From Bacillota bacterium (GTDB lineage Bacteria; Patescibacteriota; Saccharimonadia; Saccharimonadales; UBA4665): a stretch of DNA of 64,000 nucleotides. This document shows, one piece after another, positions 33 to 5,427 of the stretch. The position numbers and the translations under genes were made by a program. The stretch lies in assembly GCA_035478295.1 (NCBI GenBank), contig DATIJU010000014.1, positions 202,911-266,910 of the forward strand. Direction: 5' to 3'. Each line of letters starts with the position of its first letter. The first letter of the stretch is position 1. The notes under the pieces are model-generated. The model saw nothing but the letters and a program-made list of their open reading frames with translations. It was not told the DNA's origin and made no database searches.

Positions 33-242
33 CTACACCTCGGTAAAGTCAAATTGGTTCATAATGTTGTCGTGAAAAAAGCGACCCTTAGAATCGGCGA
101 TCATTAGCTCCTGATAAAGTGACGGCGGTATTTGCAAATAACGGTACACACTGCCCGACTGAAATTCTACCTCAAGCATCTGCTCCTCAGCGCTGTAGCC
201 AACCGATATCAAGTTAGAAGAATTTACGAGTATTCTATCCAT
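33..242 (-). CDS. Stand-alone KTSC-domain protein (~69 aa)
   Basis: ORF 33..251 starts on GTG. I prefer the ATG at 242 (MDRILVNSSNLISVGY...), which is preceded by GGGGTG. It has the KTSC pattern: N-terminal V-x-SS-x-L-x-S-V-GY and a central Y-x-Y (VYRYLQIP). It lies on the same strand directly downstream of the KTSC-Ham1 gene. Confidence 0.7.
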   Translation of the reverse strand: MDRILVNSSNLISVGYSAEEQMLEVEFQSGSVYRYLQIPPSLYQELMIADSKGRFFHDNIMNQFDFTEV

Positions 243-279
243 AATATACACCCCGCTTTTACGTAAAAATCATTATACC

Positions 280-1074
280 CTAGACGCGCTTTAATCGGCG
301 CTGAAAGACAAACCATTTTGCAAATTCCTGCCACAACGAACCGTCTTGCGCTATAACGTCGTCGGCCTCTACGGCTGCAAGCGAACGGGTATCGCCATCC
401 ATAACTACAGCTTGCCGAAATGTAGTGAGGTCACTGGGCAGTGACTCTAAAACCTTGCCCCAGTGGTCTTTCGTAAAAGCCTTGGCGCGCTTACCGTCGT
501 AGTATACGATCGTTTCGGTGCAGCCTATGGTGCGGTCGTTCTTGCCGGTCAAAAGCGCTAGAAAGTCTTCGGGCCGCAGCCATTTGTCCACGTCTTTCAT
601 GTAGGCGCCCGGGAAGCCGCGCAGCGCTAAAATGTTCCAATACTCATCCATAACCAGCACCGGGCGGCGCGCAAGGCGAAATGCCTCTTTGGCCTTATGC
701 AGCGCAATTTTATGTGCGTTGTTGCCCTGAATTTCGTCCACCGGCAATTCGAGCTGCTCAATCGATATAGCAAGCGGCTCGCACACGGCGCGCAGTTGCT
801 GTAACTTACGCGTATTGCCCGTCACAAAAGCCAATGACCTATCGCTGGCTTGTTCGGGCGCCTTGCCTACCCGCCGATAACGGTATTGGCGATTAATAAA
901 GGCGTAGAAAAACTCACCGTAAGATTCGGTGCGCATAAAACGTTCGTATACATCCGGGGCAACGTCGAAGTACTGATACACACGGTCTTCTTTGAACTCG
1001 ATCTCCAGCACACGTTCTTTAGGATCGTACCCAATTGACACAAGGTCTGACGACTCGACTGCAATCCGTTGCAT
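280..1074 (-). CDS. Fusion protein: N-terminal KTSC domain plus C-terminal Ham1/ITPase-like non-canonical NTP pyrophosphatase
   Basis: 264-aa ORF with an ATG start and an AGAGG Shine-Dalgarno. Residues 1-70 (MQRIAVESSDLVSIGYD...VYQYFDVAP) resemble the 69-aa KTSC protein. The remainder (LAFVTGNTRKLQQL...VDEIQG...VLVMDEYWNILALRGFPGAYMKD...) matches the Ham1/RdgB/ITPA pattern. It starts 23 nt downstream of the lysS stop. Confidence 0.72.
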   Translation of the reverse strand: MQRIAVESSDLVSIGYDPKERVLEIEFKEDRVYQYFDVAPDVYERFMRTESYGEFFYAFINRQYRYRRVGKAPEQASDRSLAFVTGNTRKLQQLRAVCEPLAISIEQLELPVDEIQGNNAHKIALHKAKEAFRLARRPVLVMDEYWNILALRGFPGAYMKDVDKWLRPEDFLALLTGKNDRTIGCTETIVYYDGKRAKAFTKDHWGKVLESLPSDLTTFRQAVVMDGDTRSLAAVEADDVIAQDGSLWQEFAKWFVFQRRLKRV

Positions 1075-1097
1075 GGTAGTTACCTCTTGCTGTTCGG

Positions 1098-3089
1098 CTA
1101 GAACAGCTGGAAATCTTTTGTTACTCTCTGGACATCTTCAGTTTTACCAAAGATAACAACCCCCCAAAAGTCGAGTTCGTCGATTGTTTTATCTTTAACG
1201 ATGGCTATTTCTTCGAGGCTTGGCCCGAGCGTCATGGTTTCGATAAAAACATTGGCGGACAAATGCGCCTGCTGTGCTTTACGGTACGCCTTTTGCAGCT
1301 CTTTGCTGTCGGCGGCGCGCAAGACGATGGTGGGATGGTGGGAGATGACGGCGTCGAATTCGCCGGTCTTATCCCGGTACTCCAGATAATGCAAGGCCTG
1401 TGGGTCAGGAAGCGTACCTATAAGCCCGGAAACGGCATGACTCGCCGCGTTCAGCAGCCGACCATCTTCAACATTTTTGTTCAAAATAACAGCCAGCCGG
1501 TACTCACCTTCTGCTGGCAAGTCCACCGAAGGAGCGCTCAAGTTACGACGCGTTGCACGGCCGGCCGTCGAGAGCTGCAGCTCGGGATAGAGGCCCTTGG
1601 TTACTTCGTCGACCTCGCGCCGAAGCTGCGGGAATATAACTCCTTCGCGGGCGGTTACACCCTCTAGGTACCAAAAGACTCGCTCCGAAAAACCAAAACC
1701 GCATGCTGGCGGCATAGCGTACTCGAGCGCCTCTACGTAGTCGATATCCAGCATCATAGCTTCGTCGTCGCCGGCGTCGCGCATGGCCTGCTGCTCTTTG
1801 AAGCGGTTGAGCTGATCTATAGGGTCGTTTAGTTCAGAATAGGCCTTGCAAAGTTCAGTGCCGCCCAGGAGTAGATTGAACTGCTCAGTGAGCTCTGGGT
1901 TGTTAACTTGCGTCTTGGCTAGCGGCTGCAAAAAAGTCGGGATATCTACCAAAAATGCCGGCCCGGCGAGAGTAGTGCGTACCTTTTTCCAAAGCTTGTC
2001 GATACCCCGCGAGCGATTTTCGGTCTGCTCTACCTCTATGTTGTGCGCGCGTAACTGTTCCTTTACTTCATCGAGCGATGAAGTAAAAACGTCTAGGCCG
2101 TAGTTATCGCGAATAACGTCTACAAAGCTAATACGTGGCCACTCTTGGTTGTCTGGGCCGAGGTCAACCTCCATACCCGTAGCCAGTTTAAACTGACGGG
2201 TGCCCCAGGTACGGTCTGCAACCTGCCTCACCAAACGCTCAGTAAGCTTCATGCCCTGTTGCCAATCGGCATACGCCCAATACCATTCCATGGCTACATG
2301 CTCTGGCAAGTGCTCGTCAGAGTAATTCTCATTACGAAAACGCGGACCAATATCGAATACCTTTTCGTAGCCGCCTACGAGCAGTCGTTTGAGCGGTAAC
2401 TCATGAGAGATACGCAGATAAAAATCTTGGCCGAGGGCGTCCATGTGGGTTACAAAAGGGTTCGCATCAGCACCACCAGTAGTGAGTTCCAATACCGGGA
2501 TGTTAATCTCTACAAAACCCTCGCTCATTAAGAATTCGCGGGTAGACTGCCAAAACATACTGCGGCGCAAAAAACGGCCGTAAACATCCTGATTTACGTT
2601 AGTGTCGACATAACGGCGACGCAAACGCTCCTCTTTGTTTGTGAAGCCCTCCTGCGCACTAGGTAATGGACGCAAGGCTTTAGTAAGTAGGCGCAAACGG
2701 CGTACTTCTATTGATGTCTCGCCGGTCTGAGTTTTGATAACCGGCCCGTGTGCCTCTACAAAATCACCAGAGTCTAGCAGCGGCAATTGCTCAATCCCAA
2801 GCTGGCTATCTTCGGCTTTGAGTGTCTCAACAACGCCCTCACGCAAAAACAGCTGTAGGGTGCCGCTGGCATCCCGGATTACCACAAAGGCGATCTTCCC
2901 AAACTTACGGATATTAACAATCCGCCCCACTACACTCACCTCTTGGCCTTGCAGTTGATCAAATTGCTCGATTATTTGTGCCAGTTTGTGAGTGCGTTCG
3001 GTATTAGCCGGGTACGGGTTAACGCCCAGTTTTTTGAGTTCCTCTAGTTTACGCAGCCGCTCATCGCGGAAATCTTTTAGTGTGGCCAT
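1098..3089 (-). CDS. lysS: Lysyl-tRNA synthetase (class II) with an extra C-terminal DUF2000/PTH2-like domain
   Basis: 663-aa ORF with an ATG start. It has an N-terminal OB anticodon-binding region (VSVVGRIVNIRKFGKIAFVVIRD) and class II core motifs (FRNE, GGTELCKAYSELNDP, PPACGFGFSERV). The core ends near residue ~490. After a linker, residues ~530-663 (nt 1098..1502; YRLAVILNKNVEDGRLLNAASHAVSGL...VVIFGKTEDVQRVTKDFQLF) resemble DUF2000. Confidence 0.9.
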   Translation of the reverse strand: MATLKDFRDERLRKLEELKKLGVNPYPANTERTHKLAQIIEQFDQLQGQEVSVVGRIVNIRKFGKIAFVVIRDASGTLQLFLREGVVETLKAEDSQLGIEQLPLLDSGDFVEAHGPVIKTQTGETSIEVRRLRLLTKALRPLPSAQEGFTNKEERLRRRYVDTNVNQDVYGRFLRRSMFWQSTREFLMSEGFVEINIPVLELTTGGADANPFVTHMDALGQDFYLRISHELPLKRLLVGGYEKVFDIGPRFRNENYSDEHLPEHVAMEWYWAYADWQQGMKLTERLVRQVADRTWGTRQFKLATGMEVDLGPDNQEWPRISFVDVIRDNYGLDVFTSSLDEVKEQLRAHNIEVEQTENRSRGIDKLWKKVRTTLAGPAFLVDIPTFLQPLAKTQVNNPELTEQFNLLLGGTELCKAYSELNDPIDQLNRFKEQQAMRDAGDDEAMMLDIDYVEALEYAMPPACGFGFSERVFWYLEGVTAREGVIFPQLRREVDEVTKGLYPELQLSTAGRATRRNLSAPSVDLPAEGEYRLAVILNKNVEDGRLLNAASHAVSGLIGTLPDPQALHYLEYRDKTGEFDAVISHHPTIVLRAADSKELQKAYRKAQQAHLSANVFIETMTLGPSLEEIAIVKDKTIDELDFWGVVIFGKTEDVQRVTKDFQLF

Positions 3090-3112
3090 ATCTGTCTCAT
3101 CTTATCATAAAC

Positions 3113-3138
3113 GAAACTCCCGCCGATGCAGGAGTTTC
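3113..3138 (-). terminator. Hairpin between greA and lysS (weak terminator or attenuator candidate)
   Basis: 8-bp stem GAAACTCC/GGAGTTTC with a 10-nt loop. On the minus strand it is followed by GTTTATGAT, which is only partly U-rich. Confidence 0.3.
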
Positions 3139-3160
3139 GAAGGTTATTACTTTGTTACCT

Positions 3161-3622
3161 TTAGCTGATGTCGGCGATTTTGTAAGTGGCGGTTTCTACG
3201 GGAGTCTTGATCTCGACTTCGTCGCCTTCCTTCTTACCCATAAGTGCCTTACCGATTGGTGACTCGTCGGAGATCTTGCCATTGAGCGGGTCGGCCTCTA
3301 CCGTGCCTACCACCTGGAACTCTTTGGTTTTACCATCTTCGCTCTTGAGGCGGATAGTAGAGCCCAATACGACTTTACTGTCGCCCTTAGGTGCCGTAAT
3401 CACCTGCACGTTCTTAAGGATGTGCTCGATCTCAGCAACGCGACTCTCGTTACGTTCCTGATCCTGGCGAGCGGCAGTGTATTCCATATTCTCGCCAAGG
3501 TCGCCGAATTCGCGAGCGGTTTTAATACGATCAGCAATCACCGACCTTTGAGCCACGAGCTCTTTTAGCTCTGCTTGTAATTCTTCTACACCTTGCTTGG
3601 TTAAATGGAACAGCTTATTCAT
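3161..3622 (-). CDS. greA: Transcription elongation factor GreA
   Basis: 153 aa with an ATG start and an AAGGAG SD. N-terminal coiled coil (LTKQGVEELQAELKEL...) with acidic tip DLGENMEYTAARQDQ, plus a C-terminal globular domain. Confidence 0.9.
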   Translation of the reverse strand: MNKLFHLTKQGVEELQAELKELVAQRSVIADRIKTAREFGDLGENMEYTAARQDQERNESRVAEIEHILKNVQVITAPKGDSKVVLGSTIRLKSEDGKTKEFQVVGTVEADPLNGKISDESPIGKALMGKKEGDEVEIKTPVETATYKIADIS

Positions 3623-3705: not shown

Positions 3706-5427
3706 CTACTTTGCAGCGACCATTTTTATCACGTTGTCTTTTTCGAGCAACTGTGCTTCCTGTGAACTCCTATGTTTCACTTCAAATTGACCATTCTGCA
3801 GGCTACGGTCGCTCACCACTATCCTATACGGTAAACCGATGAGGTCGGCGTCGGCAAATTTTTCACCGGCTCTTGCCGCGTTGCGGTCGTCGTATAGCAC
3901 GGCTACGCCAGCTTTTCTCAAATCTTCGTAGAGACTGTCGGCAGCGGCCAGCACATTCTCGGATTCACCGAGCGGCGCCAAGTACACGGCATACGGCGCA
4001 ACATTGTCGGGCCACAGTATGCCCTTATCATCATGATGCGCTTCGGCAATTGCAGCCAGAGTGCGGCCAATGCCAATACCATAGCAGCCCATGTAATACT
4101 TCTGACGCTTGCCTTGCTCGTCGGTATATTCGGCGTCGTGCATGAGGTTGGTGTAGTGATATCCCAGCTGGAAAATGTTGCCTACCTCAATGCCCTTCTT
4201 TTCGACCAATACCCCACCGTCCGGACCGGTAAAGCCTGGCTGCGCGAGTGCGATGTCAGCCTCGATGTCGGGCTTATAATCGCGGTCGATATTAATATTG
4301 AGCAAGTCTGCGCTTTTCTTGTTGTTACCGCCATACATATTGCGCACGGTACGCAGGCTCTTGTCGCCGACAATAACGACCGGGCGCCCGCTCTTACGCC
4401 CCTTCTTTACAAAGCCCACGGGGCTAATAAAGCCTGGCTCGCTATCTAGGTCTTCGCGAATTTCTTCTTCGGTGGCGGAGCGGAGCTCCCAGGCACCTGC
4501 GACCTGCATAAGCTTGGTCTCGTTCACATCAAAGTCGCCGCGGATAATTGCCAAAATATACCGCTTCGTAGCCTCGTCAAAGAATAAAACGTCTTTGGTC
4601 TGCTGCCACAAGGGTAAATTGTGCAGTTTTACGCCGTCTTCCATGGTCGTGCCACGAACGGCTTCTACCTCTTGCAGGTCGCGTAATTCTTCGTCCATGT
4701 TCTTGTCGTCTACCTTAAAGGTAGCCACGTCTTCGTGAGCGGCATAGCCGCTGGTTTCGTCGATAAAGTAACGGCTTTCGCCTTGGTCGCTCTCGACGAT
4801 AAACTCGTGACAGTATTCGCCACCTATATAGCCGTTATCGGCAGCCACTACATCCACCTTAAGACCCAGCTCAGTAAATATCGCGACATAGGTATCCCAC
4901 ATCTGCTGATACGTTTCCTTAAACTGGACTTCGGTACCGAAGCTGTAAGCGTCCTTCATGACGAACTCACGCACACGCAAAAGTCCGCCGCGGGCACGCA
5001 TTTCGTCGCGAAATTTCATACTGAACTGATATACGTTAAACGGCAAATCTTTGTAGCTCACGTTAAACTTACGCACCAGATCAACAGCCATTTCTTCGGC
5101 CGTGCCGCCGAGTGCAAAGTCGGCACCGCGACGGTCGGTAATTTTCATAAGCTCAAAACCGGTTGTCGTGGTGCGGTTTGTCTCTGCCCAGAGCTCCAGG
5201 GGATGCAGTGTGGGCATGAGCACTTCCTGCGCGCCGGCGTCGTTCATGTGCCTGCGTACAACATCGGTAATTTTGCTGTGCACGACTTGCCCCAGAGGCA
5301 GCATGTAATAACGCCCGGCGGTCGACTCGCGGACAAAGCCACCCTGCACTAGCAGACGGTGTGAGGGACTTTTGTAATCTGCCCCCTCCGTTTTAGAAGT
5401 CCTCCCAAATAATTGTGAGACCCTCAT
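3706..5427 (-). CDS. proS: Prolyl-tRNA synthetase, bacterial type with inserted editing domain
   Basis: 573 aa with an ATG start and an AAGGAG SD. The N-terminus MRVSQLFGRTSK...HRLLVQGGF is typical of ProRS. Class II motifs and a C-terminal anticodon-binding domain are present (APYAVYLAPLG...LYDDR). Confidence 0.92.
   Translation of the reverse strand: MRVSQLFGRTSKTEGADYKSPSHRLLVQGGFVRESTAGRYYMLPLGQVVHSKITDVVRRHMNDAGAQEVLMPTLHPLELWAETNRTTTTGFELMKITDRRGADFALGGTAEEMAVDLVRKFNVSYKDLPFNVYQFSMKFRDEMRARGGLLRVREFVMKDAYSFGTEVQFKETYQQMWDTYVAIFTELGLKVDVVAADNGYIGGEYCHEFIVESDQGESRYFIDETSGYAAHEDVATFKVDDKNMDEELRDLQEVEAVRGTTMEDGVKLHNLPLWQQTKDVLFFDEATKRYILAIIRGDFDVNETKLMQVAGAWELRSATEEEIREDLDSEPGFISPVGFVKKGRKSGRPVVIVGDKSLRTVRNMYGGNNKKSADLLNINIDRDYKPDIEADIALAQPGFTGPDGGVLVEKKGIEVGNIFQLGYHYTNLMHDAEYTDEQGKRQKYYMGCYGIGIGRTLAAIAEAHHDDKGILWPDNVAPYAVYLAPLGESENVLAAADSLYEDLRKAGVAVLYDDRNAARAGEKFADADLIGLPYRIVVSDRSLQNGQFEVKHRSSQEAQLLEKDNVIKMVAAK

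Follow-up and report, generated by a model that had tools for sequence, protein, structure and literature searches.

Class II lysyl-tRNA synthetase (LysRS) is a textbook synthetase without a hydrolytic editing domain, and we know of no post-transfer editing domain in canonical LysRS. We analyzed a 64,000-nt stretch of contig DATIJU010000014.1 (hereafter, the window) from a soil member of the Saccharibacteria (TM7; genome of 1.43 Mb, 98% complete), in which a class II LysRS carries a DUF2000 domain at its C-terminus and its gene, lysS, is followed by two genes with KTSC domains, one of them fused to a Ham1-like nucleoside triphosphate (NTP) pyrophosphatase. Several described systems resemble parts of this locus. 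The AlaX-/ThrRS-type editing domains (tRNA_SAD, PF07973) include the AlaX-type domains, a known deacylase family. DUF2000 (PF09391) has a structure in Atu0240 of Agrobacterium tumefaciens (PDB 2gax), a free 135-aa protein, and peptidyl-tRNA hydrolase 2 (Pth2) has structures from human (PTRH2/Bit1, 1q7s) and archaea (1xty, 2zv3, 1wn2, 3erj). The Ham1/ITPase family includes Mj0226 (1b78), human ITPA (2j4e) and E. coli RdgB (2q16). KTSC (PF13619; 7x8c, 4rgi) takes its name from a domain found at the C-terminus of some LysRS, according to the Pfam description quoted in PMC8541194; the domain is predicted to bind DNA or RNA (PMC9503650, PMC7824862) and forms the C-terminal arm of a SIR2-HerA helicase (8wiv; PMC11472057). 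Published comment on KTSC was confined to that predicted binding and the HerA arm, and the KTSC papers found assign it no function.

The window's lysS comprises the following parts.

1098..3089, minus strand: lysS, 663 aa, class II LysRS ending in a DUF2000 domain.
1614..3089, minus strand: class II core of LysRS, residues 1-492, with the OB anticodon-binding domain and the catalytic domain (Pfam, NCBIfam).
1500..1613, minus strand: linker of ~38 residues (493-530), bounded by residue 492, where the NCBIfam match stops, and residue 531, where the DUF2000 match begins.
1101..1499, minus strand: DUF2000 domain (residues 531-663; PTH2 fold), continuing the LysRS reading frame (Pfam PF09391, structural model, profile search).

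The core belongs to class II LysRS by its OB domain, its catalytic domain and a curated model: it matched Pfam tRNA_anti-codon (PF01336, 1.4e-12) and tRNA-synt_2 (PF00152, 3.5e-58), and NCBIfam PRK00484 identified it as a lysine--tRNA ligase (477.9 bits, cut-off 468), with TIGR00499 slightly below its cut-off (422.5 vs 427.6). No KTSC or tRNA_SAD domain was found in the window's LysRS. Neither a class I LysRS nor a second class II LysRS was found in the window's genome, where the sole other class IIb synthetase was a 442-aa frame; the window's lysS encodes the sole LysRS of the genome.

An initial annotation, made from the sequence of the window, had recognized DUF2000 by eye at the end of LysRS and likened it to a PTH2 fold, and both points held up. 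Pfam assigned residues 531-662 to DUF2000 well above the gathering score (2.6e-22, 79.6 bits, cut-off 25; model positions 2-131 of 133), and a structural model of LysRS residues 522-663 had a mean predicted local distance difference test score (pLDDT) of 90.7, its first eight residues (LysRS 522-529, the end of the linker) being neither helix nor strand and its first ten having a mean pLDDT of 72. Foldseek aligned the model with 2gax (E 3.5e-11; template-modeling (TM) scores 0.80/0.83, the former over 136 columns), and a profile search reached the same structure at 2.4e-27, so that the domain shares family and fold with Atu0240; it differs in being fused behind a complete LysRS and is ~20% identical to it. 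The alpha/beta fold of Pth2 was also recovered, with Foldseek probability 1.0 and TM scores (target) of 0.66-0.78 against 2zv3, 1xty, 1q7s, 1rlk, 3erj and 1wn2. In sequence, by contrast, the domain is not a Pth2 member: profiles matched PDB Pth2 chains only marginally (E 0.08-0.16, about 12-17% identity), and no Pfam PTH2 match was found at E <= 0.01. Two stretches of the LysRS-fused domains nonetheless align with Pth2, an N-A-x-x-H-A motif with the S-H-A region of human Pth2 (a weak alignment), in the N-terminal strand-helix motif with its conserved His, and a C-terminal L-T-K-x-x-Q-L with the C-terminal strand motif at the end of Pth2.

We compared the tail of LysRS across Saccharibacteria. 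Of 80 related lysS loci, 10 encoded DUF2000 at the LysRS C-terminus; the fusion also occurred in seven of the 401 Saccharimonadia genomes sampled (the window's own included), which span six families, and in 21 protein clusters. LysRS at five other loci (L006, L012, L015, L024 and L073) was ~770 aa long, its tail being an AlaX-type editing domain, composed of the C-terminal end of tRNA-synt_2c and tRNA_SAD, at the same position as DUF2000 in the window. Cores more than 80% identical to that of the window carried DUF2000, AlaX or no tail, and on an 81-row tree of LysRS cores the tail state changed at least 14 times; well-supported branches alone required at least six changes for DUF2000 and at least four for AlaX. 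The LysRS C-terminus of Saccharibacteria is a swappable slot that holds nothing, DUF2000 or an AlaX-type domain. No stand-alone DUF2000 gene adjoined lysS in the genome sample. One genome that has class I LysRS only (G265) encoded a free 141-aa DUF2000 protein of the LysRS-fused type on another contig (loci L094, G265:C28, and L118, G265:C16); the same genome also has a KTSC-Ham1 gene, with 4.6 kb separating it from the class I lysS upstream.

We lean, with some reserve, toward a two-part explanation of the locus, in which the tethered DUF2000 domain would be a hydrolase or binder of tRNA esters and the KTSC and Ham1-like genes would form a separate nucleotide-sanitizing unit. On its flexible ~38-residue linker, the tethered DUF2000 would hydrolyze, or at least bind, the esterified 3' end of tRNA(Lys), and its task would be to strip away a wrong acyl or peptidyl group, leaving the tRNA(Lys) free to be recharged by the synthetase beside it. 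The best available argument is that DUF2000 and a domain of a known deacylase family, AlaX, replace each other at a single tethered site, which points to the esterified end of tRNA(Lys) as the target of DUF2000. AlaX-type domains, which occupy this position in sister Saccharibacteria, are the nearest functional model for a tethered deacylase, although their fold is unrelated to that of DUF2000. The initial annotation had offered the domain as a cis-acting hydrolase or editing module, an idea that gains indirectly from the PTH2 fold and from AlaX in the same place. Fold, fusion and alternation with AlaX are observed, and the hydrolase activity and its substrate are inferred. DUF2000 is probably a tRNA clean-up module on LysRS.

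Several points weigh against a hydrolase. The domain is often lost, which suggests that it is dispensable. The window's genome retains a canonical Pth1 (208 bits), so peptidyl-tRNA hydrolase is not missing. A single Asn is the sole invariant residue across fused and free DUF2000 domains, and the family may therefore bind rather than catalyze. A literature search found no paper mentioning DUF2000, and we are aware of no DUF2000 protein with an established enzyme activity. The proposal that DUF2000 replaces a missing Pth was rejected on account of the canonical Pth1. D-aminoacyl-tRNA deacylase (DTD; Tyr_Deacylase, PF02580) was not found in the window's genome, in five further genomes with the fusion or in any of the 101 Saccharimonadia sampled; as it was not found with or without DUF2000, there is no correlation and the idea of a DTD substitute is uninformative.

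These points give substance to a serious rival of the hydrolase reading, one that we regard as unlikely: DUF2000 on LysRS would be a non-catalytic tRNA-binding appendage that grips the acceptor end and strengthens tRNA(Lys) binding, much as appended RNA-binding domains do in eukaryotic synthetases. The lone invariant residue leaves no clear catalytic set across the family, and the marginal Pth2 sequence match, the free gain and loss of the domain and the Pth1 already encoded in the genome all fit a binder. What speaks for a hydrolase instead is the other occupant of the slot, which comes from a deacylase family, together with the conservation within LysRS-fused clades of Asn547, His551 and an acidic residue near 617, aligned, if weakly, with the conserved N-terminal motif of Pth2.

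Downstream of lysS lie the two KTSC genes and their signals.

280..1074, minus strand: KTSC-Ham1 fusion gene, 264 aa.
868..1074, minus strand: KTSC domain of KTSC-Ham1, residues 1-69 (Pfam PF13619, 68.6 bits).
283..834, minus strand: divergent Ham1/ITPase-like NTP pyrophosphatase domain, residues 81-264 (Pfam PF01725, 53.1 bits).
33..251, minus strand: small stand-alone KTSC gene, open from GTG 251 (72 aa), or 33..242 from ATG 242 (69 aa) (Pfam PF13619, 81.5 bits).
1083..1088, minus strand: AAGAGG, ribosome-binding site (Shine-Dalgarno) of KTSC-Ham1 inside the 23-nt gap, read from the sequence.
272..277, minus strand: TATAAT box, read from the sequence, right behind the KTSC-Ham1 stop and 29 nt ahead of the small-KTSC ATG.

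The gene layout of the initial annotation, with gaps of 23 nt and ~37 nt, agrees with these coordinates, as do its two KTSC genes, one of them fused to Ham1, and its LysRS free of KTSC. The gap between lysS and KTSC-Ham1 is 23 nt (1075-1097), and that between KTSC-Ham1 and the small gene is 28 nt if the latter starts at the GTG and 37 nt if it starts at the ATG, the start that homologues favor. Both KTSC genes are probably co-transcribed with lysS. The TATAAT box could be an internal promoter; a consensus scan did not call it.

Profile and structure agreed on the domains of both proteins. Pfam placed KTSC at residues 7-64 (3.9e-19; 68.6 bits, cut-off 25) and Ham1p_like at residues 82-210 (4.9e-14; 53.1 bits, cut-off 22.5) of KTSC-Ham1, and matched the small protein to KTSC at 3.5e-23 (81.5 bits, cut-off 25). 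The structural model of KTSC-Ham1 (pLDDT 92.6) consists of a KTSC domain, a soft linker and a Ham1 domain. Its KTSC domain is a clear member of the family in score and fold (TM 0.94 to 7x8c and 4rgi), and the small KTSC protein matched 7x8c, 4rgi and the C-terminal end of HerA in 8wiv. The difference from the family's name lies in the partner, since the eponymous LysRS-KTSC fusion does not occur in the window and KTSC is here fused to, or stands beside, NTP pyrophosphatases.

The Ham1 domain belongs to the Ham1/ITPase family (PF01725) by its Pfam match, its fold (TM 0.82 to Mj0226, with an end-to-end sequence alignment to 1b78) and its phosphate/metal motifs: TGNxxK, DE, K and D are kept, as is FPGxY, and conservation of K90, E114, K127 and D143 across 44 members of the Ham1 subfamily is 90% or higher. 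It differs from RdgB/HAM1 proper, however, in scoring 53-72 bits against equivalog cut-offs of 145-203 (TIGR00042, 53.4 vs 145.35; NF011396, 71.9 vs 203) and in its C-terminal base-recognition motifs, which are replaced in the alignment to 1b78, with SLW at the SHR position and no G-Y-D-type loop. The domain thus appears divergent and catalytically intact. Besides KTSC-Ham1 (54 bits), the genome has two Ham1-family genes, one canonical (125 bits) and the other divergent and 206 aa long (73 bits), the two lying at G000:C9:41333-41851 and G000:C28:16241-16780; the separate canonical Ham1 and the third paralog suggest that KTSC-Ham1 is a specialized enzyme, not the housekeeping ITPase. An exhaustive profile search of 1.84 billion representatives yielded ~140 strong stand-alone Ham1 relatives of 185 aa and no more than about four clusters of KTSC-Ham1 at 50% identity; other members of the subfamily were joined to NUDIX or to an HD/YfbR-like 5'-nucleotidase domain. 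A word-based search returned more than 100 KTSC-Ham1 clusters at 90% identity, named Saccharimonadales, which indicates that the fusion is a real family. The KTSC-Ham1 of one complete genome (L005/L145, CP025011, 6546-7346) lies on a long branch, with its TGNxxK, D-E and D motifs substituted, and is possibly inactivated or repurposed.

We collected 20 KTSC-Ham1 loci with an alignment query (a single-protein query gave one locus), 18 of which retained upstream flank. All 18 had lysS upstream on the same strand, directly adjacent in 14, so that the linkage, which might have been unique to this genome, recurs; the lysS was of class II in seven (L133, L143-L146, L148 and L152, besides the window) and of class I (PF01921) in 11 (L134-L136, L138, L139, L141, L142, L147 and L149-L151). 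One to four unrelated genes (APH, GH6, abhydrolase) stood between lysS and KTSC-Ham1 in L134, L138, L149 and L150. Class I and class II loci were intermixed on the KTSC-Ham1 tree, where L135 (class I) was sister to L152 (class II) with support of 99/97; this intermixing indicates that the synthetase was exchanged in place several times while greA, the gene upstream of lysS, and KTSC-Ham1 stayed. The linked loci are close kin of a single Saccharibacteria clade, with GreA proteins 74-92% identical, and therefore amount to roughly one evolutionary event. G265 and two further genomes (G295 and G401) had class I LysRS only. A locus with class I lysS and KTSC-Ham1 (L134, also L117; DATLCF010000002.1, a 557-kb contig of a 1.1-Mb genome) is labelled Nevskiaceae and has the Saccharibacteria synteny proS-greA-lysS-...-msrA; the label looks wrong. 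The same contig encodes a heliorhodopsin beside msrA.

What did prove peculiar to the window, among the genome loci examined, was DUF2000 and KTSC-Ham1 together: no KTSC gene was found at any of the 10 other LysRS-DUF2000 loci and no DUF2000 at the other KTSC-Ham1 loci, and linkage of KTSC to lysS is thus independent of DUF2000. In the closest LysRS-DUF2000 relative (L001, 81% identical), nothing but the pair of KTSC genes is missing between lysS and the next shared ORF. KTSC itself is rare, occurring in 11 of the 401 Saccharimonadia genomes and in 13 of 401 sampled Patescibacteria genomes, and the KTSC frames besides KTSC-Ham1 fusions in both samples were 71-174 aa long. None of 20 other KTSC loci (19 small stand-alone genes and the KTSC-Ham1 of G265) had lysS within ~1.5 kb. 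A LysRS-KTSC fusion was found neither in the 80 Saccharibacteria lysS loci nor in either 401-genome sample, and none was among the 120 longer KTSC proteins listed, which comprised only KTSC-Ham1, HerA-KTSC and KTSC-repeat/Sel1 architectures; a single-sequence search for longer KTSC proteins gave one match.

These results bear on an alternative drawn by the initial annotation, a Rosetta-stone interaction in which KTSC docks on LysRS and recruits KTSC-Ham1 to hydrolyze a nucleotide made by LysRS, such as diadenosine tetraphosphate (Ap4A) or a related adenylate by-product, with DUF2000 adding editing in cis. We consider it improbable. The name of the domain favors it, as do the position of KTSC-Ham1 behind lysS in every flanked locus, mostly adjacent, the short gaps with a Shine-Dalgarno sequence, and the Ham1-like genes that stand directly behind class I lysS even without KTSC (L158, L160 and L161). 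Fused LysRS-KTSC proteins in relatives, the premise of the inference, were however not found, the fusion being known to us solely from the Pfam description quoted in PMC8541194. The linked loci come from one clade and count essentially as one event, the other KTSC loci examined lie away from lysS, and unrelated genes have been inserted in four loci. Class I and class II LysRS have unrelated folds, and with no fold in common a conserved docking surface for KTSC is unlikely. A specific physical complex of KTSC and LysRS is consequently unlikely, and a role of KTSC-Ham1 in Ap4A metabolism is pure speculation; we know of no Ham1-family enzyme that cleaves Ap4A.

We favor instead the second part of our explanation, in which the downstream genes would be an accessory nucleotide-sanitizing unit, made up of a KTSC-Ham1 pyrophosphatase, whose KTSC domain is a predicted nucleic-acid binder, and a free KTSC protein. 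The steady association of KTSC is with nucleotide pyrophosphatases, Ham1-like and MazG-like, that is, with sanitation of the nucleotide pool. L141 repeats the order lysS, KTSC-Ham1, free KTSC with a class I LysRS, and L140, where no upstream flank remains, has KTSC-Ham1 and then free KTSC; the free KTSC proteins of these two loci are 66-75% identical to the window's small gene product. In two loci with no lysS nearby (L157, 4781-6552; L155, 504-2317), the gene immediately behind a free KTSC gene (62% identical to the window's small one) encodes a MazG-like NTP pyrophosphohydrolase, after which come a zinc-ribbon ORF on the reverse strand, a small ORF and, 1 kb on, a stand-alone Ham1-like gene, with a HAD hydrolase gene upstream. 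These neighbors, and the fusion of other Ham1-subfamily members to NUDIX and HD domains, lead us to the pool-sanitation reading. Saccharibacteria scavenge nucleotides, which makes pool sanitation a sensible role. The place of the unit behind lysS is single-clade synteny, independent of DUF2000 and surviving replacement of class II by class I LysRS, and any functional tie between KTSC and LysRS would pass via tRNA(Lys), nucleotides or mere co-expression. Two observations tell against synteny as the whole account: the adjacency to lysS has outlasted at least three class swaps, possibly through selected co-expression with LysRS and not neutral synteny, and there are the Ham1-like genes without KTSC behind class I lysS. 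We accordingly allow a modest chance that the Ham1-like gene behind lysS is functionally tied to it via nucleotides or tRNA(Lys).

A further alternative for the DUF2000 domain is recycling of peptidyl-tRNA(Lys) rather than editing, in which the domain would free tRNA(Lys) from dropped-off peptidyl-tRNA and pass it to the synthetase. The PTH2 fold agrees with such a role, and loss of Pth in E. coli is reported to become limiting because tRNA(Lys) runs short (Heurgue-Hamard et al. 1996, EMBO J). With a canonical Pth1 in the genome, an AlaX alternation that suggests aminoacyl over peptidyl esters and DUF2000 absent from most relatives, we nevertheless hold this version to be quite doubtful. It is very improbable that the KTSC genes belong to an anti-phage or mobile module, as KTSC in SIR2-HerA HerA and the Ham1-like KomB of the Kongming system might suggest: PDB matches to the C-terminal end of HerA in 8wiv and to KomB in 8zsg and 9v0g, KTSC in phage PHROGs families and the clean presence or absence of both genes relative to L001 favor it, but PADLOC gave 0 matches for LysRS, KTSC-Ham1 and the small KTSC protein, on which ground membership in a known defense system was rejected, the SIR2, HerA, KomA and KomC partners are not nearby, and the genes hold a stable syntenic position inside a housekeeping string.

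That string consists of five minus-strand genes at the left end of the window, proS, greA, lysS, KTSC-Ham1 and the small KTSC gene, of which the upstream part reads as follows.

3706..5427, minus strand: proS, prolyl-tRNA synthetase (ProRS) with INS editing domain (Pfam tRNA-synt_2b, tRNA_edit, HGTP_anticodon), first in the conserved proS-greA-lysS string.
3161..3622, minus strand: greA (Pfam GreA_GreB_N and GreA_GreB).
3112..3139, minus strand: strong 12-bp hairpin with a T-rich tail, from a scan for terminator-like structures, within the 72-nt spacer from the greA stop to the lysS ATG.

Comparison of loci showed that the proS-greA-lysS synteny is also maintained in relatives, with greA upstream of lysS in every relative that had flank. 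The hairpin may be a greA terminator or a lysS leader. A regulatory RNA ahead of lysS was considered and rejected after an Rfam search of the hairpin and the region upstream of lysS matched no family.

For KTSC, our result is a correction: the name of the domain invites a reading through LysRS, and its steady partner here is a nucleotide pyrophosphatase. That close relatives have exchanged class I and class II lysS in place offers a clean natural example of non-orthologous displacement. A broader interpretation, which we put forward only as a long shot, is that the LysRS of Saccharibacteria has a plug-in slot for interchangeable tRNA-ester hydrolases, that DUF2000 is a new family of aminoacyl- or peptidyl-tRNA hydrolases, and that the KTSC and Ham1-like proteins, retained behind lysS across repeated class swaps, are a second clean-up arm acting on some nucleotide or tRNA species connected with lysine charging. 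If true, the repeated gain of an AlaX or PTH2-fold domain on LysRS would give DUF2000 its first testable function and would point to a tRNA(Lys)-specific problem of fidelity or recycling in these ultra-small, host-dependent bacteria.

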